DNA of 64,000 nucleotides from Escherichia phage vB_Eco_F26. The stretch is from the sequence record OP870145.1, one strand, 5' to 3'. Of the stretch, positions 22,832-35,655 are shown in pieces (position 1 is the first letter of the stretch; each line of letters begins with the position of its first letter). Position numbers and translations under genes: made by a program. The notes under the pieces were generated by a model that was not told where the DNA came from, did not search any database, and saw nothing but the letters and a program-made list of their open reading frames with translations.

Positions 22832-23551
22832 TTAGGATTCTTCTAAATGTCTTTTCTGAAAAGTTGATACCATACTACGATACGGTTCATTTGGATATCC
22901 GTGTTTTATAGCTTCCTTTGTAAATTTTCTCCATCCATATTTAGTTTCTTTCCAAAGCTCGAATAATTCATCTTCATACTGCCATATAGTTAAATGAGAA
23001 CGCTTTGCAGCTTTAATTCCATTAATATGCTTTTCTTTTACTGTAGGATTGCTTAGTTTCTTTTTAATAATATTACTAACTTTTCTAACAAAAACTGGGT
23101 CCTTATATCGTTGCGAAGTTTTTATTGAAGTGTTTAATTTAGCTTCCGGCGTGGATGTGACCTCTTTCATCTTTTTCTTCATATGCTGTATATGATTAGG
23201 ATTTTTCCATAAATTTATAGAATGCTTTTTGCATTTTATCCTAGTTTCATCTGCAACCTTTCCTCCTTCACCCCCGTATGACAGGTTAACACAGTTTTTT
23301 CCATATTTCAATTTACCTGCCATGATATATAATATTTCAGCTTGTACCATTTTATCATAATTATCAAAAACTTCTAAAACCGTTTTTGATAATATGTGGT
23401 CATTTGACACTTTTACACGTTCTATATAATTTCCACTACCAACATACGAATCATTGATGTTATTAGTTATATGTCGACCATAATAGTATTTCTTAATACC
23501 TGTCTTTAAATTTAATATTTCAGTTTTATAGATAGTAAAATATTTTTTCAT
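22832..23551 (-). CDS. GIY-YIG homing-endonuclease-like protein (free-standing)
   Basis: 239 aa; YFTIYKTEILNLKTGIKKYYYGRH...GSG GIY-YIG module; basic C-terminus. Confidence 0.6.
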   Translation of the reverse strand: MKKYFTIYKTEILNLKTGIKKYYYGRHITNNINDSYVGSGNYIERVKVSNDHILSKTVLEVFDNYDKMVQAEILYIMAGKLKYGKNCVNLSYGGEGGKVADETRIKCKKHSINLWKNPNHIQHMKKKMKEVTSTPEAKLNTSIKTSQRYKDPVFVRKVSNIIKKKLSNPTVKEKHINGIKAAKRSHLTIWQYEDELFELWKETKYGWRKFTKEAIKHGYPNEPYRSMVSTFQKRHLEES

Positions 23552-24528
23552 TTTAATAATACCGTTTCAGCAATTTCTTCCCAATGGTTTTTGTCGGTCA
23601 TAATAAAGTCAGCAAGATAAAGAGCAGTACGCAGTGAAACATTGCGTAAACGATTAACATTGACTTTCATCCATGATAATGCTTTATAAGTTTCTTCATC
23701 AGAAAGACCGCGCTTTTGCATCATGTCAGTTGAAAGAATAACATCTTCAACCCTGACCATAATTTCTTCATTAGTGTGAACACCCAAATCCAAATAAACT
23801 GAGCGGGACACTAATGCTTGTAAATGTGGAGCAAGTTTAGTACCACGGTCTAATTCGCGGTCAATATCAACGTTTGTGATAAAAACAATCGTTCCTTTAA
23901 ATTCAAACTCACGCTCAATGCCTTTTTCTTCTAAGTAAGAAGATGCAGTGCTCCAGCAGACTTTACGGGTCTCTCCAGTGTCCAGAGCAGCTTTCAGAAG
24001 ATTAAGAATGTCCATATCAGAGAAAACATCCACATCATCAATCAAAAGGACAGAATTCTCTTCACGATTATTCCAAAGCTGTTCATAAAGACCGATACCA
24101 GAGATTTTACCATTAATGCTTTTATACTCAATGTATCCAATATCATTTGCTTTATTCAAAGCTTTATCTAAAGAATACGTTTTACCAATACCTGCCGCAC
24201 CAGAGATAATTAATGAACGAATGTTTCCGTTAATAATACCATTCGTCATCATTCCCATAACATTAAATCTTTTATTAATGCGGGTTTTCATATCTTCATA
24301 TGATTCTTTAACTTCTTCAACTTTTACACCATCATATGAAATGTCTGATTTGTAAACCCAAACACCGCGACGCTTACCGTCAATTTCAACAAAAACTTTA
24401 CCATCTCCTTGTGCATCTACCGGAGCATTATCTGGGAACCATTCGCCTAAGAGCTCAAAAGTTCCAGAGATTTCTTTACCGAAGTAGATACCCTTATTGA
24501 TAGTTACAGTTTTCATTTTATTCTCCAA
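23548..24528 (-). CDS. AAA+/P-loop ATPase
   Basis: 326 aa; Walker A GAAGIGKT, Walker B LLIDDVD. Confidence 0.6.
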   Translation of the reverse strand: MENKMKTVTINKGIYFGKEISGTFELLGEWFPDNAPVDAQGDGKVFVEIDGKRRGVWVYKSDISYDGVKVEEVKESYEDMKTRINKRFNVMGMMTNGIINGNIRSLIISGAAGIGKTYSLDKALNKANDIGYIEYKSINGKISGIGLYEQLWNNREENSVLLIDDVDVFSDMDILNLLKAALDTGETRKVCWSTASSYLEEKGIEREFEFKGTIVFITNVDIDRELDRGTKLAPHLQALVSRSVYLDLGVHTNEEIMVRVEDVILSTDMMQKRGLSDEETYKALSWMKVNVNRLRNVSLRTALYLADFIMTDKNHWEEIAETVLLK

Positions 24529-25644: not shown

Positions 25645-26102
25645 TCAGCCTTATATTCAATAACAGGACATACTTTAGCTTTACGAGCTTTTAAAAATTC
25701 GACGATAATCGATTTCTTGGGTTGAATAGGAGGTAAACCTTTATACGCCCTATCAATATTTTCTACGTGTAAAGCATAATCCTTTTTCCATTTATAATCT
25801 TTATATTTTTCACGCAAATGTGCAGGAATAACAAATGAACTGATAATAAGTAAAACAACCAAAAGCGCAAGTATAAATGCTGATGGAAGCAAAGTCCATA
25901 AACTACCAAAAATAATCCAACGTTGTAGGCTTTCTGCACAAATAATTGTTAGCCCTACGAGTATAGCACATCCAAAAATAGAAACGAAAAATGTAGGAAT
26001 GGCAATAGACCAAAAATATGCGCACAGTGTCTTAGGTCGTTGCCATTCATCGTTAAACATTTTGAATAATTTATAGTGCCAAGAGTTTTCATTAATAATC
26101 AT
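25641..26102 (-). CDS. Predicted membrane protein
   Basis: 153 aa with 3-4 hydrophobic helices. Confidence 0.45.
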   Translation of the reverse strand: MIINENSWHYKLFKMFNDEWQRPKTLCAYFWSIAIPTFFVSIFGCAILVGLTIICAESLQRWIIFGSLWTLLPSAFILALLVVLLIISSFVIPAHLREKYKDYKWKKDYALHVENIDRAYKGLPPIQPKKSIIVEFLKARKAKVCPVIEYKAE

Positions 26103-26104
26103 AA

Positions 26105-26626
26105 TTATCCTTTCATTGAAGGCGTAACAGTTGTTAAATACTTAATCATAGCTTCAGCTTCTGATTTTGATAGTGAAATTTCTTCACCGTTTTGGCGAAT
26201 AGAAACAAAATCTGGATGACGATCACCACCAGCTTTTAAAACACACATATAAGTATCAGCTTCGCCTTCAATATTTGAAATGATTGAAGCAGTTCCACAT
26301 GAATGCGGTTTTTGATAAATCAATACAGCTTTTCTTCCACCATTTGACTGTTCATAGGCTTTTAATACATCAAGCAAATCAGTTCTTTTATCAATAGCTA
26401 AGATGTTATTTTCATCTTCAATATTAAATCCTTCGGATACTTCATAAAGAGTTACCCATAAATCACCGATGTCAATAACAGCATTTACTTTTCCACGGCT
26501 TTCAAGAGTATGACAAATTTTCTTGATTTCGTCATAACTCATTTTAATAATATCATCTCCTTGAATAAGAAAGATGTCATTTTTAAATTCAACACGAATT
26601 AAACCACTTTCACTTGAAATAAACAT
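26105..26626 (-). CDS. Hypothetical protein, paralog of the adjacent upstream ORF
   Basis: 173 aa; shares GFNIE and ...EA-A-KYL-V-P-M C-terminal motifs with ORF 26633-27178. Confidence 0.45.
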   Translation of the reverse strand: MFISSESGLIRVEFKNDIFLIQGDDIIKMSYDEIKKICHTLESRGKVNAVIDIGDLWVTLYEVSEGFNIEDENNILAIDKRTDLLDVLKAYEQSNGGRKAVLIYQKPHSCGTASIISNIEGEADTYMCVLKAGGDRHPDFVSIRQNGEEISLSKSEAEAMIKYLTTVTPSMKG

Positions 26627-26632
26627 ATTTCC

Positions 26633-27178
26633 TCACTTTGAAATCATAGTTGGAATGACAGAATCAAGATAAGTCTTTAGCGCAATAGCTTCGTCTTTGG
26701 TAAATGTGACAATATGTGCTCGAAAATCATCAATTTGACGAATAGTTAAGACATCTCCATCTTCATAACATTTTGATACGTTTAAAACAGTTTCATCATT
26801 CTGATTGCAAGCGTTAGTAATAATAGCATTGCAATTTTTAAACCATTTTAAACTATGTTTTCTTTCATTAGAATAATAAAAATATTTAATCTTATCTATA
26901 AAACTATCCCAATGGATAACTGATAAGCATATTGACTCGCTTTCAATATTAAATCCTGGGCATGAAGAATAAAAATGAATTTTATGCTCATCATTAATGC
27001 TTACAATTTTATCAGTATAAGGATTTTCAATTTTGGTTAAATGAATGATTTCACTAGGCGTAAAATACAGCATATCGTCTTCTTGTGTCAAACGATACAT
27101 ATTATTTACTTTTTCTATAGCCAATTCACCAAAAAGTGAACTAACTTCTAATACTAATCGTTTCGCCGCTACCGTCAT
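26633..27178 (-). CDS. Hypothetical protein, paralog of the adjacent downstream ORF
   Basis: 181-aa ORF. Confidence 0.45.
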   Translation of the reverse strand: MTVAAKRLVLEVSSLFGELAIEKVNNMYRLTQEDDMLYFTPSEIIHLTKIENPYTDKIVSINDEHKIHFYSSCPGFNIESESICLSVIHWDSFIDKIKYFYYSNERKHSLKWFKNCNAIITNACNQNDETVLNVSKCYEDGDVLTIRQIDDFRAHIVTFTKDEAIALKTYLDSVIPTMISK

Positions 27179-27310
27179 TACATACTCCTCTGAATCATAT
27201 CAATAATGTTGTTCACCAGATTATAAGTAAACATTGGGTAATTATATTGAATCACCACATACACAACAAGCAAAACTTTCATTCTCTTCTCCTTGGCAGT
27301 TGACAAGATT

Positions 27311-27340
27311 ACTATACCATAACCTTGCCAACTTGTAAAC
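27311..27340 (-). promoter_or_regulatory. Early promoter (-35 GTTTAC / -10 TATAGT)
   Basis: Minus strand GTTTACaagttggcaaggttatggTATAGT. Confidence 0.5.
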
Positions 27341-27342
27341 CA

Positions 27343-27516
27343 TTAAATGACGTTTTCAATAAAATTCTGAAGCTTTGTGTGAGCATCAACCATGATTTTC
27401 ATTTCTTCCTTTGCGAAAGCTGTACCTCTTTCCCGAGCAGAATACTCATAGTCAGAAACTGCATTAGCATATTCTTCAATTAGCTTCATTAAAAACATCT
27501 GCTTTTCAGTTTTCAT
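27343..27516 (-). CDS. Small hypothetical protein (57 aa, below ORF-track threshold)
   Basis: Hand translation MKTEKQMFLMKLIEEYANAVSDYEYSAREREGT...; co-oriented. Confidence 0.3.
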   Translation of the reverse strand: MKTEKQMFLMKLIEEYANAVSDYEYSARERGTAFAKEEMKIMVDAHTKLQNFIENVI

Positions 27517-27700
27517 TATTCCACCTAATCATTTCAAGATATTGAACTAACTTAGCTTTAGATTTATCCAAATCCTTTTTAGCTGCTTCTATACCGTCGT
27601 ATGAATATCCTTCACAATGCTCAACTGCTAATTGATATGAATCTATTTCAATATCACGTGCTAATTTAATGATTTTTTCAAACTGTTCGAGTGTTAGCAT
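27506..27700 (-). CDS. Hypothetical small protein
   Basis: 64-aa ORF. Confidence 0.4.
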   Translation of the reverse strand: MLTLEQFEKIIKLARDIEIDSYQLAVEHCEGYSYDGIEAAKKDLDKSKAKLVQYLEMIRWNNEN

Positions 27701-27702
27701 AA

Positions 27703-27942
27703 TTAAACTCTCGTATTATGATCGATAATTTCATCAAGAAACATATCTAACGCTTCTAAAGCATTATCAACTTTAGTTTCAAAGTCTTTAATGCCTTTAT
27801 TCGAAATACCCGATGAATACCAAGCAAAGTCAATCAGCTCTTCATCTGCTTTACGAATTGAAGCCACTAATTCCTTGATTTTATCTGCTTGCTCTATACT
27901 AATCATTATTCCACCACATATGACAGAGAGAATATTGCACAC
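27703..27942 (-). CDS. Hypothetical small protein
   Basis: 79-aa ORF. Confidence 0.4.
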
Positions 27943-28139
27943 GCCATATGCGTTGCAGCTTCATCACACATATTATAACGTTTCTTCAAAACTTCAACAA
28001 GTTCTTCACTAGTAACTTCATCCATGTTGACGAAAAAATCACCATTAATGATGACGTAGATATTTCCTTCTTGATTGAGTGCTTCAATTTTCATGATGTT
28101 CTCCTCTTTATCCGATAGTTGTATAGTACCACAGCTCAA
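27906..28139 (-). CDS. Hypothetical small protein
   Basis: 77-aa ORF downstream of an early promoter. Confidence 0.4.
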
Positions 28140-28152
28140 ACGGAAAGTAAAC
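28123..28152 (-). promoter_or_regulatory. Early promoter (-35 GTTTAC / -10 TACTAT), conserved module
   Basis: Minus strand GTTTACtttccgtttgagctgtggTACTAT. Confidence 0.55.
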
Positions 28153-28167
28153 CGGTAAAATGAAAAA

Positions 28168-28185
28168 AGTCTCCCGAAGGAGACT
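28168..28185 (-). terminator. Stem-loop AGTCTCCCGAAGGAGACT
   Basis: Perfect hairpin downstream of ORF 28190-28576. Confidence 0.45.
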
Positions 28186-28189
28186 AATG

Positions 28190-28576
28190 TTATTCGAGGG
28201 AAAGAAGATACTTACTCTGGTAAAACATTCCAGTAATATCATCTATCGTGCTTTGGATGGCTGGAGGCATTTCTTTATAAATGCTGTTAGATTGGTCTAG
28301 TATGCGATCAATCATTTTAATTGTGTCGGTAGGAAGTTTACTGGCATCTGGAATTGAAGGTGTGTATTTTCTACCAGAATACCCCAAATATTGCTCACCA
28401 AATTTATCAATCAAATCTGGCAACTCGGAGAAAATAAAATCGTATGCTTTGTGTCTAGCATAACTTTTAGTTTCAAAATGTGCAGAATGAAAATAAGCTT
28501 GTGCAGCCATTAATAAACCTAAGTATTCATCTGCCTTTGAAGGTTTTCCACTTTGTGAAAAGTCGCTGAATTTCAT
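28190..28576 (-). CDS. Hypothetical protein
   Basis: 128-aa ORF immediately downstream of rI. Confidence 0.45.
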
Positions 28577-28866
28577 TCAGTCTCCAATTTAATGTTCATA
28601 ATTCTAGCGTATGATTGTGCCATCTCCGCGCCTCGCTCTATACATTCAAAATCAGAAGAGCACGGGTCATTTTTATAAGTCGTTCGCATAAAACTATAGA
28701 ACTGTTCAGATGATTCTACGCTTTTATTTTCAAAAAGCATATAAACGTGTCTAATACCAGATTCCATAAATTTATCAAAATGAGGATCGACATTCGCTTC
28801 AATCGGTGGAGACAAAGCAAATGCTAATCCTAGCATGGCAAATAGTGCCGTTGCTTTTAAGGCCAT
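28573..28866 (-). CDS. rI: Lysis-inhibition regulator RI (periplasmic antiholin)
   Basis: 97 aa; MALKATALFAMLGLAFALSPPIEANVDPHFDKFMESGIRHVYMLFENKS... matches recalled T4 RI. Confidence 0.93.
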   Translation of the reverse strand: MALKATALFAMLGLAFALSPPIEANVDPHFDKFMESGIRHVYMLFENKSVESSEQFYSFMRTTYKNDPCSSDFECIERGAEMAQSYARIMNIKLETE

Positions 28867-28878
28867 AAAGGCCTCCTA

Positions 28879-29091
28879 TCATTTTTGTCCTGTATTTACT
28901 TTATGCCGATGCACGGCCTTAACTTTATCAAGGTATTTTTCAAAATTTCGCAATCTAGTATAGTCTGCCGGAGATTGGTTGAGTGATACTTCTCGACGCA
29001 AAGCTGAAATGATATTTCCAACTTCCCTACGAATTTCATCTAATTGAAGAACAGTAAGATTGCGAAGTTGCTTTTCAGTTAATTGTAGCAT
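28879..29091 (-). CDS. Hypothetical small protein
   Basis: 70-aa ORF. Confidence 0.4.
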
Positions 29092-29133
29092 ATATACCCC
29101 TTTAGTTAGATAAACCTATTTATAACTTTTGCA

Positions 29134-29715
29134 CTAACCGAGCTTTTTAGTTAATTCATTCCAATGTTTTCTGCACAAAGAAACATAAATTTCATCACCA
29201 ATACAGATTTGATTACCTTCTTTAACTGGTGTTCCATCTTCCATTAATCGAGCTGTCATAATAGCTTTTTTACCACAATGACAAACTGCTTTTAGTTCAA
29301 TAAGTTTATCTGCAATCGCCAAAAGTTCTTTAGAACCTTCAAATAATTTTCCAGCGAAATCAGTCCTTAATCCATAAGCCATAACAGGAACATTATATGT
29401 ATCAACAATTCGACTTAATTGATGCACTTGTTCAGTTTTTAAAAACTGAGCTTCATCTACAAATACGCAATGAATATCTTTTTGTGCTTCAGCCCATTTA
29501 TAGAACTCGAAAATATCCATATCATCTGTAATAATATTCGCTTCCTGTTTAATTCCAATGCGAGAAACAACTTCACAGACAGAATCGCGAGTATCAATAG
29601 CAGGCTTAAGAACTAATACACTCATTCCACGTTCTTTATAATTATGTGCAGCAGTCAAAAGAGAAGCAGATTTTCCAGCATTCATTGCTGCATAAGTAAA
29701 AATTAAACTCGCCAT
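29134..29715 (-). CDS. tk: Thymidine kinase
   Basis: 193 aa; P-loop AMNAGKS and C-terminal Cys motifs of type II thymidine kinase; matches recalled T4 Tk. Confidence 0.93.
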   Translation of the reverse strand: MASLIFTYAAMNAGKSASLLTAAHNYKERGMSVLVLKPAIDTRDSVCEVVSRIGIKQEANIITDDMDIFEFYKWAEAQKDIHCVFVDEAQFLKTEQVHQLSRIVDTYNVPVMAYGLRTDFAGKLFEGSKELLAIADKLIELKAVCHCGKKAIMTARLMEDGTPVKEGNQICIGDEIYVSLCRKHWNELTKKLG

Positions 29716-29716
29716 C

Positions 29717-29905
29717 TTAGTCCTTAGTTAAATTTTCTAAATATGTTTTTAAATCATTTTCAGCTTTATCGATAGATTTTACTAATTCGTAATATGTTTC
29801 GGCATCTCCATATTCAGAAGATATTTCAAAAGACAAATCCTTTTCTAAACTAATAATTTCACCAACTAAAAATAATATTTCGTTCTTTTGTTCGCGAGTA
29901 ATCAT
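29717..29905 (-). CDS. Hypothetical small protein
   Basis: 62-aa ORF. Confidence 0.4.
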   Translation of the reverse strand: MITREQKNEILFLVGEIISLEKDLSFEISSEYGDAETYYELVKSIDKAENDLKTYLENLTKD

Positions 29906-30093
29906 AAGGAATTTATATAATTAATAAGTTCTTGTTCTTTATTATCGAATTCTTTAGAAAGTTCTTCGTACTCGTTTGCACTAAAAGGACCGCATTCATT
30001 ACAAACTTTTTCCAATTCACTATTTTTATCCATAACTTCGTGGATAAGAGAAAAGAGTTTGTCTTTTTGTTCTTTACTTAAACTCATAACCAT
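29902..30093 (-). CDS. Hypothetical small protein
   Basis: 63-aa ORF. Confidence 0.4.
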   Translation of the reverse strand: MVMSLSKEQKDKLFSLIHEVMDKNSELEKVCNECGPFSANEYEELSKEFDNKEQELINYINSL

Positions 30094-30311
30094 GTCACCT
30101 TTAAGCAGTATTCTTCTACATGCTGTTTACGACCTTTCTTATCAATAAAGGTATATTCAACGAATGTTCCAATGTAGTCTTTATCTACATCATGTGGACT
30201 ATTAATTGGACATTTAGTACGGCAAATGCGTTCCCATTGACGAATAATTACTGCCTTATTCTTTGGGTCATATGGATGTGGATAATGTATATTCATAATA
30301 ATGGTTCCCAA
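30084..30311 (-). CDS. Hypothetical small protein
   Basis: 75-aa ORF. Confidence 0.4.
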   Translation of the reverse strand: MGTIIMNIHYPHPYDPKNKAVIIRQWERICRTKCPINSPHDVDKDYIGTFVEYTFIDKKGRKQHVEEYCLKVTWL

Positions 30312-30760
30312 TCAACAATCACAATTTCTAATTTAGAGGAATATGTATCTAAAATCCCCTCAATAATATCCCAGTTTCCTTTACCTATGCCTGCACCAAT
30401 CCTAGGCATATAGATTGTAGGTTTAATCAGTTTATTTTCACCAAACTCATTTAATTCTAACATACAATTCATTAAAGCGGAATATTCAAAATTTGGCCCT
30501 GGTTGAAATTGAGTATAAAGATTAAAGCAGTAAGCTTTATGAGTCCTAAAGTATTTTTCATAGACTGAGTAAGAACCAAGTTTAGTTACATCACCCCATT
30601 CAGTCTGTAATTTATCAGCTTCCAAAATTTTAGGGAAAGCTTTGGTTAATTGACCTGCGACTCCAGCTTTCATCGTATGAAAACAATTGCATCCATGCGC
30701 AATATTTTTACCTTCAGTGAAAAGGGCGACAATATCGCCCTTGATATATTTTACAATCAT
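30293..30760 (-). CDS. Macro-domain (ADP-ribose-binding/processing) protein
   Basis: 155 aa; GDI...AHGCNCFHTMKAGVAG N-terminal signature typical of macro domains. Confidence 0.55.
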   Translation of the reverse strand: MIVKYIKGDIVALFTEGKNIAHGCNCFHTMKAGVAGQLTKAFPKILEADKLQTEWGDVTKLGSYSVYEKYFRTHKAYCFNLYTQFQPGPNFEYSALMNCMLELNEFGENKLIKPTIYMPRIGAGIGKGNWDIIEGILDTYSSKLEIVIVDWEPLL

Positions 30761-31104
30761 CTAGTACTCAATCCTCGATTATAAGAATCTACCAAACGGT
30801 CAACCATTGAATGACAAGCGGCTTTATCTTTCTCCTCCGCAACTGAACATTCTAATGTATTCCACTTTTTAGCATATCGTTTTAATAATGTATCGTTTTT
30901 GTATCTGCTTGATTTATCTCTTTCTCCGTCTTTATATGCATATATTAATTTCTGCGCAAATTCAGCTTGGCATGCTTTATTTTTCCCACAATAATCTGCC
31001 GCAGTGCGATTTACATATTCTCTAATTTCAGTATATGATGTATCTGCTGACGCAGAAGCAGAAAATGAAATTAATCCTATACATAAAACCAAAATTTTAG
31101 TCAT
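30757..31104 (-). CDS. Small secreted protein (N-terminal signal peptide); position and size correspond to T4 vs
   Basis: 115 aa; MTKILVLCIGLISFSASASA signal-like N-terminus, several Cys. Confidence 0.4.
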   Translation of the reverse strand: MTKILVLCIGLISFSASASADTSYTEIREYVNRTAADYCGKNKACQAEFAQKLIYAYKDGERDKSSRYKNDTLLKRYAKKWNTLECSVAEEKDKAACHSMVDRLVDSYNRGLSTR

Positions 31105-31642
31105 TTACTATTTCCAAAAGTTTATTATTTTTAAGGTAATTAGCCTTTTCTAGGACTTCAGAAGCATATTTAGAACCAGCTTTAACATTCCATCCCGAAT
31201 TATAAGAGGATATCGCCTTTCTTATATCGCCCTTATGTATATTTAACCAATAAGAAAGTTCAATGTACGCCCAGGAAGCTGAATTGGACCGTTTATTCAA
31301 CATTCTTTTTATTTCAGCATCGGTCATATTATAACCAAGTTCCTTAACTCTTGCTCGCATAGTAGGCAAATAATTTTGGAACATTCCGTAGGCGTGATGC
31401 TTTGGTTTAGATTTTAAATTAACTCCGCCAGAGCTTTCTTGCCATAAAATAGCAGCCATTATATGACCTAATCCGCTCTTGTGGATATTTTTATGTGTTT
31501 TATATTTTCCATCCTTAGAAAATTGTTCCCCGAATTGATACGCGTAACGCATGTTATCGAGTTGGACATTACTGAAAGTATGCTCGGAGCTATGTGCCAT
31601 CATTGAAATGGCCAATAGACCAGCGAGTAGTGCTTTTCTCAT
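31097..31642 (-). CDS. Secreted lytic-transglycosylase-like protein
   Basis: 181 aa; signal-like N-terminus MRKALLAGLLAISMMAHS; AILWQESSGG resembles the SLT catalytic E-S motif. Confidence 0.45.
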   Translation of the reverse strand: MRKALLAGLLAISMMAHSSEHTFSNVQLDNMRYAYQFGEQFSKDGKYKTHKNIHKSGLGHIMAAILWQESSGGVNLKSKPKHHAYGMFQNYLPTMRARVKELGYNMTDAEIKRMLNKRSNSASWAYIELSYWLNIHKGDIRKAISSYNSGWNVKAGSKYASEVLEKANYLKNNKLLEIVND

Positions 31643-31649
31643 GCTTACC

Positions 31650-32111
31650 TCATTGAGTTTTAATTACTGCTTTAGAAGCCTTTCCTGGTAAACGACGACT
31701 GTTAATAATTGCCATCCTACATTGAAGTGACGGGTCTTTGAACTTCTCATTAGGTTTACAAACTGTAAATCCAAGCCAAAGATTTCCATCTGTGATTTCT
31801 AAACGTCCAGGACGATATTCAATTCCATCAATAAAATCCTCGTCAATGTCAGGACGCGGAGGCATACTCAGGAATTCATTAACTTCTAAAACATGGTCTT
31901 TTATTTTATGGAATAATTCAAAAACGTATGTCTCATCAATCTCCCGTTGAATTGCGCGATCAAGAAGATGTTGAGAATATTTTAGATGAAACGATGAGAC
32001 TCCTGCTGCTTTTGATGCCTCACGAATCTCATTGTTAATTTGACGAAACTCCGACTCAAAGTGACGACGAAGCTTATTTCGACGGATAAAAACTTCTGTA
32101 TTGATAGTCAT
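31650..32111 (-). CDS. regB: RegB site-specific endoribonuclease
   Basis: 153 aa; MTINTEVFIRRNKLRRHFESEFRQINNEIREASKAAGVSSFHLKYSQ... matches recalled T4 RegB. Confidence 0.93.
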   Translation of the reverse strand: MTINTEVFIRRNKLRRHFESEFRQINNEIREASKAAGVSSFHLKYSQHLLDRAIQREIDETYVFELFHKIKDHVLEVNEFLSMPPRPDIDEDFIDGIEYRPGRLEITDGNLWLGFTVCKPNEKFKDPSLQCRMAIINSRRLPGKASKAVIKTQ

Positions 32112-32127
32112 GTTGTTCTCCTCTTGA

Positions 32128-32157
32128 CTGATAGAAAAATTATACCACAGTCAAGAG
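32128..32157 (-). promoter_or_regulatory. Early promoter (-35 GTTTAC / -10 TATAAT) for regB
   Basis: Minus strand GTTTACttttcctcttgactgtggTATAAT about 17 nt upstream of the regB start. Confidence 0.6.
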
Positions 32158-32170
32158 GAAAAGTAAACAG

Positions 32171-32491
32171 TTATTCTTTAAATCTAATCAATTTATTCAT
32201 AGACTTTGAAACTTCTGCACGAACCTCATGTAGATTTTTGAGCTGTTCAAGACGCTGCTCATAGTAAGCAATTTCATCTTCTTCGAGACAGTCCTGTGAA
32301 TCTTCTTTAAGATAGCGTGCATAGTCCTGGAAAGCGTTACGGACTACTTCCTGGAAATCATCAAGACTTTGAATTTTCTTAGGAGCAACAGATACACGAC
32401 GAGGGGCAGTATAATACTCATAACCAAACCCTGCGCTTAATTGAGCCATTAATATTTTTCCTCTGGTTGGAACACAGCACGACAAGCCCAC
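32171..32491 (-). CDS. Hypothetical protein
   Basis: 106-aa ORF. Confidence 0.45.
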
Positions 32492-32751
32492 ATACTGGCT
32501 TCTTTGAGTTTCGTTTTAGCAATAGTTAACTGATCGAGGCTTTCGGCATAATTCTTCGCGAATTCACAGTCTTCACAATTATCTAGTGCTTCCCAGAATT
32601 CATCGTATAAAGCATCAAAGATAAGTCCTAAACGAACTTCAGCGTCTTTGATGGCATTCACTTTACCGATTTTCTTTTCAGTATGCGGCTTATAACCCTT
32701 AATATCTTCAATCATATTTGACTTCCTCACCAGTACATAAATCATATTCAA
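32449..32751 (-). CDS. Hypothetical protein
   Basis: 100-aa ORF. Confidence 0.4.
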
Positions 32752-32929
32752 CTAAACGAATAGGTTCATGAATGCCATATCCCTGAACAGAAATTTCTGT
32801 AGTAGGATAAATTCCATCAATATCACCCATGTTCCATGCTTCGTTAAATTGCTGTTCGCCTGAATTACTAAACCATTCGGCGAAAGCATTTAGCACATCT
32901 TCAGAACCTTCAATAATTATCTTTGCCAT
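32708..32929 (-). CDS. Hypothetical small acidic protein
   Basis: 73-aa ORF. Confidence 0.4.
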   Translation of the reverse strand: MAKIIIEGSEDVLNAFAEWFSNSGEQQFNEAWNMGDIDGIYPTTEISVQGYGIHEPIRLVEYDLCTGEEVKYD

Positions 32930-33291
32930 TACAAACTCTCGGTAAAGGTACGAGCAATAACGTCGCGTTGCTGTTCCGGAGTCAGAGAGTTAAAGCGAAC
33001 TGCATAACCGGATACACGGATGGTCAGCTGCGGATATTTTTCCGGATGCTTAACTGCATCTTCCAGAGTTTCACGACGCAGAACGTTAACGTTCAGGTGT
33101 TGACCACCTTCAATTTTAACTGTAGGCTGTTGCTCAATTTCAATTTCACGGGCATGCAAACCGTAGAAAATTTCTGGGTCTACAAAAGAGTCCTCTTTAA
33201 AGGTTTTAGAGACAATAATTCGTGCTTGAATACCATCTTCAAAATAAATAGTACCTTTATGTGTGCCTTCAAGAATTTGATATGCTTTCAT
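32929..33291 (-). CDS. Autonomous glycyl-radical cofactor (GrcA/YfiD-like)
   Basis: 120 aa; C-terminal ~65 aa ([61 protein letters not shown]) matches recalled E. coli GrcA/PFL C-terminus including the RVSGY glycyl-radical motif. Confidence 0.8.
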
Positions 33292-33298
33292 ATAAACC

Positions 33299-33679
33299 TC
33301 AATTAAAAAATAAATTTATCCAAGATTGTTCTTTAATTAAAAATGGCTCAGAATCATATGCCATTAAACTCTGTGTGATTAGTCCTTTAAAAGGCCCATC
33401 AATAAATTCCATGGTAAAATATGGAATTTTATTCATTAGCCGTGCATTAGGAGCAGTACATAAAACTCTGCATCCTTTGAATACACCCTTTTGTAATTTG
33501 TATTGCTTGGGATAAAATTCGCTCAAAATGTTATTATTCGCTAAAATTTCAAAATGATTCACCAATTTATTTTTAATAGTTTTTGGTGAAAAATAGAGAT
33601 ATTCGAAAAGCTGTGCGTCTGTCATCATTGCATTCCGATTACGAAAAACTGTGGACGAGTAATACCACCAATGCAACAT
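33299..33679 (-). CDS. Hypothetical protein
   Basis: 126-aa ORF. Confidence 0.4.
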
Positions 33680-34164
33680 TTACTATTGCAACAGTACTGT
33701 ACAGTGTCAATATGAGCATCATAAATCTTATCCATATCAGGAGATTTGACAGGCTCGTCAATTATATACAAAATTCGCGAAAGCGATAAACCTCTGAACT
33801 TGCTTCCTTTATTACCAATAAAACTGCGCACAGAATCAGTAAATAAACGAAAACGTATATCATCATTAGAATAACGCGAAAATTCCTTTTTAATGTCATC
33901 TGCGGAATTTTTAGCATAAACTGAAGTATTAGAAAGAACAATAACTGTTCCGCCATCATACAACCAGTTAGCAGCGAAGTTAGTCACAGCAATTGATTTA
34001 CCGGATTGACGTCCACCATCTATACGAAGTGTGCAATACTGCTTAAGTAAGTCTTCAAATGGCGGGATATATTCGTTTTTACAAATTTCTTCTACTCTAG
34101 CATCAGAATGGTGTGTAAAAGCATTCATCAGGGATAGATAAGGACCAGTTAAAAATGTTCTCAT
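33625..34164 (-). CDS. P-loop NTPase-like hypothetical protein
   Basis: 179 aa; Walker A-like GGRQSGKS and Walker B-like ILYIIDE; occupies the position where T4 has denV. Confidence 0.45.
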   Translation of the reverse strand: MRTFLTGPYLSLMNAFTHHSDARVEEICKNEYIPPFEDLLKQYCTLRIDGGRQSGKSIAVTNFAANWLYDGGTVIVLSNTSVYAKNSADDIKKEFSRYSNDDIRFRLFTDSVRSFIGNKGSKFRGLSLSRILYIIDEPVKSPDMDKIYDAHIDTVQYCCNSKCCIGGITRPQFFVIGMQ

Positions 34165-34220
34165 TTAGTTTCTCTTTTAGGTTGGGCCATTCCTTGGCGC
34201 ATGAATTGTCCATTTCTGTA

Positions 34221-34275
34221 TTTACCCCTCCAAGTAATTATGAATATACTATCACAATTCTAGGAGAAAGTAAAC
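34221..34275. repeat. Promoter-containing direct repeat, copy A (flanks IP cassette)
   Basis: caagtaa-t-tgaatatactatcacaattctaggagaaagtaaac shared with 34611-34665. Confidence 0.7.
34246..34275 (-). promoter_or_regulatory. Early promoter (-35 GTTTAC / -10 TAGTAT)
   Basis: Part of a ~45-bp repeat also present at 34611-34665. Confidence 0.5.
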
Positions 34276-34277
34276 TG

Positions 34278-34580
34278 TTATTTACCTTTAATTACTTTAG
34301 CTGCTTCGATAGCCGCTTGCTGAAGGTCATCCATAGACATACCGAATTTAGAAGCAAAGTTATCAATTTTCTTTTCGACAGCATTCAAAGGCTTGGCCTG
34401 TTTACCTTCATTAGCGCCAGGAAGAGCGAGAATACGCTCTTTGTCAATATAAAGGCTTACAAGTTTCTTACGGTCTTTATCGGACAAATCATGAAATGAA
34501 TGGGCCTTTTTATTTATAGCGGCTTCTAATTTACCTGCACTCACTCGCGCTTCAGTAATAAATTCTTGATATGTTTTCAT
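34278..34580 (-). CDS. Internal-protein (IP)-like capsid-injected protein with capsid-targeting sequence
   Basis: 100 aa; N-terminus MKTYQEFITEA matches the T4 IP capsid-targeting consensus with an LxE-type protease site. Confidence 0.7.
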   Translation of the reverse strand: MKTYQEFITEARVSAGKLEAAINKKAHSFHDLSDKDRKKLVSLYIDKERILALPGANEGKQAKPLNAVEKKIDNFASKFGMSMDDLQQAAIEAAKVIKGK

Positions 34581-34610
34581 ATGTTTCCTTTAAATATTTT
34601 AATTAATAAT

Positions 34611-34665
34611 TTATCTATTCAAGTAACTGTGAATATACTATCACAATTCTAGGAGAAAGTAAACA
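34611..34665. repeat. Promoter-containing direct repeat, copy B
   Basis: Same ~45-bp element as 34221-34275; contains -35 GTTTAC. Confidence 0.7.
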
Positions 34666-34668
34666 ACT

Positions 34669-35199
<531 letters not shown>

Positions 35200-35655
35200 T
35201 TAAAAGAGGCTGTTCATTATTCGGTAAAGTGAAGGACCCATCACGTATTGCCACTGAGTACGAGGAATAAGAGCAAAAGCGTCCATCTCTGGAATCATAA
35301 CACCATCTTTATTTTCAAAATAAGACTCACAATAGCAATTTCTGAACATCTCATGCTCTACTGGAATCGTATAATAAAATAACTGTAAGTCTTTATTACT
35401 AGAATATTTAAATACACCTAGGTCTTCTAGAAGGTCTGGATTATAATTGCTAAAACCGGTCTCTTCTAAACATTCTCTTCGTGCTGCATCTAGTGCACTT
35501 AAATCAGAATTTTCTACACGGCCCTTTGGAATATCCCAGCGATGTGCCATCATTCCAGGCTTACGAGAACCAGTAACCCGACCCATAAATAAATCTTTAT
35601 CTTCTGTCATGAAGATAATACCAGCTGATAATGTTTTCATTTTAATTTCCTGCAA
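35200..35655 (-). CDS. nudE: Nudix hydrolase NudE
   Basis: 151 aa; Nudix box GRVENSDLSALDAARRECLEETG; immediately upstream of e as in T4. Confidence 0.85.
   Translation of the reverse strand: MQEIKMKTLSAGIIFMTEDKDLFMGRVTGSRKPGMMAHRWDIPKGRVENSDLSALDAARRECLEETGFSNYNPDLLEDLGVFKYSSNKDLQLFYYTIPVEHEMFRNCYCESYFENKDGVMIPEMDAFALIPRTQWQYVMGPSLYRIMNSLF

Follow-up and report, generated by a model that had tools for sequence, protein, structure and literature searches.

Escherichia phage vB_Eco_F26 encodes, in the tk-vs interval, a small protein that a preliminary description of the 64,000-nt window (the whole stretch of DNA analysed here) had taken for a macrodomain, and the question raised by this locus is which ADP-ribose such a protein would act on. 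The earlier proposal was that it could reverse ADP-ribosylation or degrade ADP-ribose-derived signals, T-even phages being known for the transferases Alt, ModA and ModB and hosts for ADP-ribosylation and NAD-derived signals in defence. The product begins with MIVKYIKGDIVALFTEGKNIAHGCNCFHTMKAGVAGQL in the ORF list. The N-terminal pattern quoted earlier, GDI...AHGCNCFHTMKAGVAG, is indeed found in the 155-aa ORF at residues 8–10 and 21–36, with KGDI occupying residues 7–10. The ORF lies on the minus strand, which the earlier account did not mention, and the tk-vs placement was right, as tk.4 is located between vs on one side and tk.3, tk.2, tk.1 and tk on the other (Table 1).

Table 1. Positions in the window of tk.4, its neighbours and the motifs encoded by it.
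Feature	Position	Strand	Remarks
tk.4 / adfM CDS	30293..30760	(-)	ATG start, 155 aa; single macro domain, no other domain
vs (valyl-tRNA synthetase modifier)	30757..31104	(-)	115-aa ORF; upstream, co-directional; orthologue annotation
tk.3, small protein of unknown function	30084..30296	(-)	downstream; 70 aa as in T4; T4 annotation
tk	29134..29715		ORF list and T4 gene order
ATGA overlap, vs stop / tk.4 start	30757..30760	(-)	30758-30760 cat = ATG, 30757-30759 tca = TGA
ATGA overlap, tk.4 stop / tk.3 ATG	30293..30296	(-)	T4 tk.3 likewise overlaps tk.4 by 4 nt
H-G-C-N-C motif, codons 22-26	30683..30697	(-)	N25 = DarG N22 = PhiKZ AdfM N23; H22-G23 = SCO6735 H24-V25
Phosphate-binding loop 1 (G-x-G type), HTMKAGVAG, codons 28-36	30653..30679	(-)	from the alignment
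N-L-Y-T-Q, codons 80-84	30509..30523	(-)	Q84 at the position of TARG1 K84, DarG K80 and SCO6735 Gln85
Second ADP-ribose loop (diphosphate and distal ribose), PRIGAGIGKGNW, codons 119-130	30371..30406	(-)	aligned to TARG1 "PRIGCGLDRLQW"

The ATGA overlaps at both ends of tk.4 indicate that the gene is tightly packed in a co-directional block. In T4, the block from regB to tk is expressed early. A promoter scan of the sequence was uninformative, with 22 sites found versus 28 expected from shuffles. The terminator scan returned a plus-strand hairpin at 30722–30742, with an 8-bp GC-rich stem (AAGGGCGA...TCGCCCTT) within tk.4 codons 7–14. The record of phage DalCa lists the equivalent hairpin, on the coding strand, as a "rho-independent terminator". 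This hairpin was rejected as a terminator, the fold of the mRNA having a z value of −0.84 with 39 of 200 shuffles folding equally well.

A 2.6-kb stretch around the ORF has matches in 669 phage records, the best of which are Tequatrovirus records with 98–99% identity, T4 and T6 included. The encoded protein is identical to T4 Tk.4 at 152 of 155 residues (98%) over the full length, both proteins being 155 aa long. In T4 records, the genes follow one another in the identical order, regB-vs.1-vs-tk.4-tk.3-tk.2-tk.1-tk, and positions 26608–34227 of the window are collinear with T4T DNA at 96%. The ORF is the orthologue of T4 tk.4, by sequence as well as by synteny. The three differences from T4 Tk.4 are T15 (alanine in T4), K31 (glycine) and A32 (serine), the last two being located in the phosphate-binding loop, while every motif residue, Q84 included, is the same in both proteins.

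The comparison with T4T also brought up several differences elsewhere in the window. At the syntenic vs.8-e position (34227–34700 versus T4T 64842–66364), denV, the endonuclease V gene, and ipIII are absent, ipII is only 88% identical and the e.2a/e.2b segment is missing. An insertion of ~730 nt at 22836–23568, between the equivalents of nrdC.9 and nrdC.10, and a segment of ~960 nt at 25646–26607, in place of the mobD homing-endonuclease gene, have no T4T counterpart. Mobile or accessory genes that differ from those of T4T probably make up both segments.

Both the gene and its role against the DarTG2 system are already known. The 2010 T4T record describes the product as "Tk.4; contains A1pp phosphatase motif", and many recent phage records carry the labels "macro domain-containing protein" or "phosphatase". 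The macro/A1pp annotation is thus old, and the role was assigned in 2025. DarT2 is a toxin that ADP-ribosylates thymidine in ssDNA, and DarG2 is its macrodomain antitoxin (PMC11825919). In a HIDEN-SEQ screen of a T4 transposon library on E. coli with DarTG2, tk.4 was the single significant hit, and a clean knockout of tk.4 sensitised T4 to DarTG2 (bioRxiv 10.1101/2025.11.20.689424). The gene was then renamed adfM (anti-DarT factor Macrodomain), and a similarity to Mycobacterium tuberculosis DarG by AlphaFold was noted (bioRxiv 10.1101/2025.11.20.689424). Enzymatic removal of ADP-ribose from DNA by Tk.4 "seems likely" according to this preprint of November 2025, the evidence in it being genetic (bioRxiv 10.1101/2025.11.20.689424); no hydrolysis assay of Tk.4 was found in the literature searched. 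For this window, the result is the re-identification of a known gene. What is added here is an active site with glutamine in place of lysine and a short loop, the position of Tk.4 outside the DarG family, and the non-orthology of the two proteins that bear the name AdfM.

The macrodomain call itself proved correct. The HMM search against Pfam Macro (PF01661) recommended in the preliminary description gives a significant match (25 bits against a gathering score of 22; E = 1.9e-5), in which residues 22–132 are aligned to profile positions 2–113 of 118. The match to PHROG 335 has an E-value of 7.8e-65. With Tk.4 as the query, a sequence search of the PDB retrieved BT1257 (4e-8), Poa1p, TARG1/OARD1, SCO6735 and DarG. 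With a profile of 108 homologues, the E-values were 8e-20 for BT1257, 1.5e-16 for TARG1, 9.5e-16 for SCO6735, 2.7e-14 for Poa1p and 6e-14 for M. tuberculosis DarG. The AF2 model obtained from the 108-sequence alignment (pLDDT 95.7, pTM 0.91) has the three-layer α/β/α macro fold in the predicted structure, and a Foldseek search with this model gives a probability of 1.00 to solved macrodomains, with an E-value of 4.7e-10 for TARG1 and a TM-score of ~0.8 for Poa1p. Both ADP-ribose-binding loops, the G-x-G after strand 2 and the G-x-G-x-x-G before the last helix, are present and aligned with those of TARG1, DarG and BT1257, and N25 is conserved. Tk.4 is a macrodomain, on evidence far above chance, and it falls into the ALC1-like class together with TARG1, DarG, Poa1p and SCO6735, apart from the MacroD, viral and PARG classes.

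The active site was examined in a MAFFT alignment of Tk.4 and its homologues with TARG1, M. tuberculosis DarG, Thermus aquaticus DarG, BT1257, SCO6735 and PhiKZ AdfM. The TARG1 and M. tuberculosis DarG sequences used are exact matches to the PDB chains, and those of T. aquaticus DarG, BT1257 and SCO6735 were taken from the search alignments. It should be mentioned that pairwise BLASTP misaligned the central region of SCO6735, and the MAFFT and profile alignments were used in its place. The residues H22, G23, C24, N25 and C26 are each kept in 90% or more of the 108 aligned sequences, and the HGCNC motif recurs in 119 of 142 further cluster representatives. Across the same 108 sequences, there is no substitution at Y82 or Q84, and N80 and T83 are nearly invariant; glutamine is found at the Q84 position in 132 of the 142 further representatives, which stand for clusters at 50% identity. 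The profile alignments give the same register, with nlYTQ facing NMIGQ in BT1257 and YLITK in TARG1. In the second loop, P119, I121 and G124 are invariant and G122, G128 and W130 are nearly invariant (108 sequences), with Gly126 of Tk.4 at the position of TARG1 Asp125. Absence of catalytic or binding residues had been named beforehand as evidence against a macrodomain. The binding loops and N25 are all in place; the lysine of the DarG/TARG1 type is missing, but Gln84 matches the glutamine of SCO6735, an active enzyme of the Gln type.

Loop 1 has invariant G33 and A35 and a nearly invariant M30 in the 108 sequences, and its position 32 aligns with K34 of SCO6735 and K29 of DarG. With K31-A32 in place of the G31-S32 of T4, a lysine takes the place of the first glycine of the usual G-x-G. 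The K31 variant is common to a sub-lineage of 28 phage records with at least 99% identity, and position 31 varies among G, A, F and K in the wider family. It is noted that K31 adjoins the position of K34, the DNA-positioning lysine of SCO6735.

Having glutamine where TARG1 and DarG have their catalytic lysine, Tk.4 belongs with the Gln-type macrodomains, Q84 being equivalent to the glutamine of BT1257 (PDB 2FG1/2AFC) and to Gln85 of SCO6735 (PDB 5E3B). SCO6735 from Streptomyces coelicolor is 54% identical to Bacteroides BT1257 and has Gln85 in place of the lysine (PMC9411070). On ssDNA, it strips off ADP-ribose linked to thymidine at a higher rate than DarG or TARG1; it also rescues DarT toxicity, and its Q85A mutant is inactive; a water-mediated mechanism involving Gln85 and Val25 was proposed (PMC9411070). 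Its efficiency on DNA was attributed to K34 and to an extended mobile loop, which exceeds that of DarG and TARG1 by about five residues and carries Lys89 and Lys93 (K89 and K93) (PMC9411070). Compared to these chromosomal proteins, phage-borne Tk.4 is only 21–31% identical and does not have the extended mobile loop. BT1257 has a six-residue insertion just after the glutamine relative to the phage profile, and the loop of Tk.4, QFQPGPNFEY, contains no lysine. There is also no lysine in Tk.4 at the SCO6735 K34 position, where this phage has A32 and T4 has S32, and K31, one residue earlier, is not conserved in the family.

Several features separate Tk.4 from DarG. The DarG proteins of T. aquaticus (5M31/5M3E) and M. 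tuberculosis (5M3I) are 17–19% identical to Tk.4, and their catalytic K80 lies in a P-T-K motif where Tk.4 has Gln84 in Y-T-Q. The NCBIfam DarG equivalog model scores Tk.4 at 24.3 bits against a cut-off of 250, covering positions 2–146 of 338, and the PADLOC DarG model gives 29 bits over its macro part only (2–145 of 329). By these two models, the C-terminal DarT-binding domain of DarG has no counterpart in the 155 residues of Tk.4. No darT gene is found next to tk.4, whose neighbours are vs and tk.3 in the T-even early block. Tk.4 is not a member of the DarG family.

The ALC1-like fold of Tk.4 is also that of human TARG1/OARD1 and yeast Poa1p. TARG1, which removes thymidine-linked ADP-ribose too (PMC12879935), has the dyad K84/D125 where Tk.4 has Q84/G126. 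Poa1p, an ADP-ribose 1''-phosphate phosphatase with a small-molecule substrate, has a serine at the Q84 position.

The name AdfM has also been given to gp104 of phage PhiKZ, which removes DarT2 marks from DNA in vitro and rescues DarT2 toxicity, with reduced activity in its N23A mutant (PMC13309987, Cell Rep 2026). Like Tk.4, PhiKZ gp104 is a phage-encoded, stand-alone macrodomain that counters DarTG2. It is, however, of the Lys type (FPTKDNW) and is imported into the phage nucleus, whereas Tk.4 is of the Gln type. The two proteins are ~17% identical over the MAFFT-aligned columns, and the BLASTP match between them extends over 23 residues only. A neighbour-joining tree was computed on 153 trimmed columns (500 bootstraps); it is a distance tree of sequences with low identity. 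In 95.6% of its replicates, the Lys-type proteins (the two DarG, PhiKZ AdfM and TARG1) are split from the Gln-type proteins (the Tk.4 family, BT1257 and SCO6735). PhiKZ AdfM and DarG form a group in 97% of the bootstraps, and monophyly of the phage family with respect to SCO6735 and BT1257 has 45% support. The low identity and the split in the tree together indicate that the two AdfM proteins come from different lineages recruited for the same job. AdfM is thus one name for two lineages, the Gln-type T4 Tk.4 and the Lys-type, DarG-like PhiKZ gp104, and this suggests that counter-defence macrodomains have been recruited more than once.

We consider it quite probable that Tk.4, a Gln-type macrodomain made early and standing alone, acts on phage ssDNA and cleaves off the ADP-ribose that DarT2 has attached to thymidine. 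The DarT2 toxin of the host DarTG2 system would place ADP-ribose on thymidine in single-stranded phage DNA, and Tk.4 would bind the thymidine-attached ADP-ribose and hydrolyse the N-glycosidic link, so that removal of the mark would let phage replication continue. The invariant Q84 at the lysine position of DarG and TARG1 suggests that the mechanism is probably water-mediated and similar to that of SCO6735. In such a mechanism, the amide of Q84 would hold the ring oxygen of the distal ribose, and a backbone carbonyl near the H-x-C-N motif would position the water. From these comparisons we infer both the catalysis on thymidine-ADP-ribosylated DNA and the essential role of Q84. As a counterpoint to catalysis, Tk.4 has neither the lysine of DarG and TARG1, nor the mobile loop of SCO6735, nor a lysine at the K34 position. 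The supporting genetics come from a preprint on T4, whose protein differs at residues 31 and 32 of the phosphate loop.

A T4 NudE homologue, a Nudix hydrolase annotated as acting on ADP-ribose, FAD and ApnA, is encoded at 35200–35655 (-), 4.4 kb from tk.4 and on the same strand. This enzyme could clear the free ADP-ribose that a macrodomain releases.

The knockout phenotype by itself is no proof of catalysis, since the inactive SCO6735 Q85A still inhibits DarT by binding (PMC9411070). Tk.4 could neutralise DarT2 mainly by stoichiometric binding, or shield the ADP-ribosylated DNA, without hydrolysis. The lack of the classical catalytic lysine would fit this, as would the in vitro inhibition of DarT by the dead mutants DarG K80A, TARG1 K84A and SCO6735 Q85A, the last being the strongest of the three (PMC9411070). 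However, Tk.4 does not have the DarG-like C-terminal domain for binding DarT, and N25, Y82, T83, Q84 and both loops are invariant or nearly invariant across thousands of phage homologues from very different hosts. An active site kept this constant in phages with unrelated hosts is more readily explained by catalysis on a shared chemical substrate than by the binding of a single toxin, and we regard inhibition by binding or shielding as the main activity as distinctly improbable. A somewhat stronger, but still unlikely, alternative is that Tk.4 mainly processes a soluble ADP-ribose derivative, as a Poa1p-like phosphatase, an O-acetyl-ADP-ribose deacetylase or a degrader of an immune signal, with protection against DarTG2 being secondary or indirect. 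The Tk.4 structure is as similar to Poa1p as to DarG, relatives of Tk.4 are fused to Nudix and DUF4326 domains, and H22 and T29 align with Poa1p His23 and Ser30, residues of presumed functional role that were mutated in deposited structures (6lfs, 6lft), at an overall identity of only ~22%. Nevertheless, the residue of Poa1p at the Q84 position is not glutamine, and for SCO6735, the Gln-type relative, removal of ADP-ribose from DNA is proven (PMC9411070). The sole tk.4 phenotype under the conditions of the preprint is also on the DNA-modifying DarTG2 (bioRxiv 10.1101/2025.11.20.689424). It is noted that activities on soluble ADP-ribose derivatives and on DNA are not mutually exclusive.

Erasure of protein ADP-ribosylation, placed by the phage Alt, ModA and ModB or by a host transferase on phage or host proteins, would be in line with the presence of ADP-ribosyltransferases in T-even phages and with the action of TARG1 and SCO6735 on Glu/Asp-linked protein ADP-ribose as well (PMC9411070). 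However, tk.4 shows no linkage to such genes, with vs and tk.3 adjoining it. Alt, ModA and ModB modify arginine, and arginine-linked ADP-ribose is removed by enzymes of the ARH/DraG type; to our knowledge, macrodomains do not reverse this linkage. The reported phenotype also concerns a DNA-modifying toxin (bioRxiv 10.1101/2025.11.20.689424), and protein marks as the main substrate appear very improbable. Phage macrodomains are not dealt with in the CmdTAC paper or in the Thoeris II preprint. Of the activities proposed in the preliminary description, the reversal of defence-related ADP-ribosylation is supported by the genetics of T4 tk.4, the 98%-identical orthologue, with DarTG2. The likely substrate of Tk.4 is ADP-ribosylated thymidine in DNA, and not the arginine-linked protein marks of Alt, ModA and ModB or a soluble signal.

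Proteins of this kind are widely distributed. A tblastn search found Tk.4-like matches in 2,727 of 50,697 phage records, spanning T4-like, Felix O1-like, rV5-like, Vi1-like and PAK_P-like phages as well as phages of Acinetobacter, Vibrio and Bacillus. An exhaustive search with the family profile retrieved 19,065 clusters at 50% identity with E ≤ 1e-3 and 1,360 with E ≤ 1e-30. Macrodomains belong to the accessory domains most often met in large phages. Two MAG proteins, P0071 ("Bacilli") and P0099 ("Culicoidibacterales"), were considered as bacterial DarT-linked antitoxins and rejected, their genes being located on T4-like phage contigs that carry Rnl1, PNKP, dCMP deaminase and spanin and have no DarT in the vicinity of these genes. 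On two distant T4-like contigs (L002, positions 41–2397, and L003), a Tk.4-type macro gene is found near DUF4326, RNA ligase 1, a Dda-like helicase and PNKP.

Relatives of Tk.4 also occur as fusions, with the architectures Macro+NADAR+DUF4326 (P0222), DUF4326+Macro (P0229) and Macro+Nudix (P0258). AdfN, the anti-DarT1 enzyme of T4, has the NADAR fold (PMC11825919; bioRxiv 10.1101/2025.11.20.689424), and DUF4326 is a proposed ADP-ribose-phosphate processing domain that is fused to Macro and NADAR in viruses (PMC9503650). These domain combinations suggest that Tk.4-type domains may be part of a modular toolkit for ADP-ribose processing and clean-up, of which the DUF4326 component is uncharacterised.

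Defence against phages through ADP-ribosylation of DNA by DarT toxins is widespread, and Q84, rather than a lysine, is the residue for experimenters to mutate in the T-even protein. A broader reading, which we offer tentatively as a possibility more doubtful than probable, is that Tk.4-type proteins form a third, very large and mostly phage-borne branch of the ALC1-like class, Gln-type like SCO6735 but with a short loop as in DarG and TARG1. This branch would have been recruited independently of PhiKZ AdfM, and its lysine-free chemistry would give it a broader erasing range. If true, this range would comprise, besides thymidine-ADP-ribosylated DNA, uracil-ADP-ribosylated RNA, Glu/Asp-ADP-ribosylated proteins or soluble ADP-ribose derivatives. 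One small early protein, at times fused to NADAR, DUF4326 or Nudix domains, would then blunt several ADP-ribose-based defences, beyond DarTG2.
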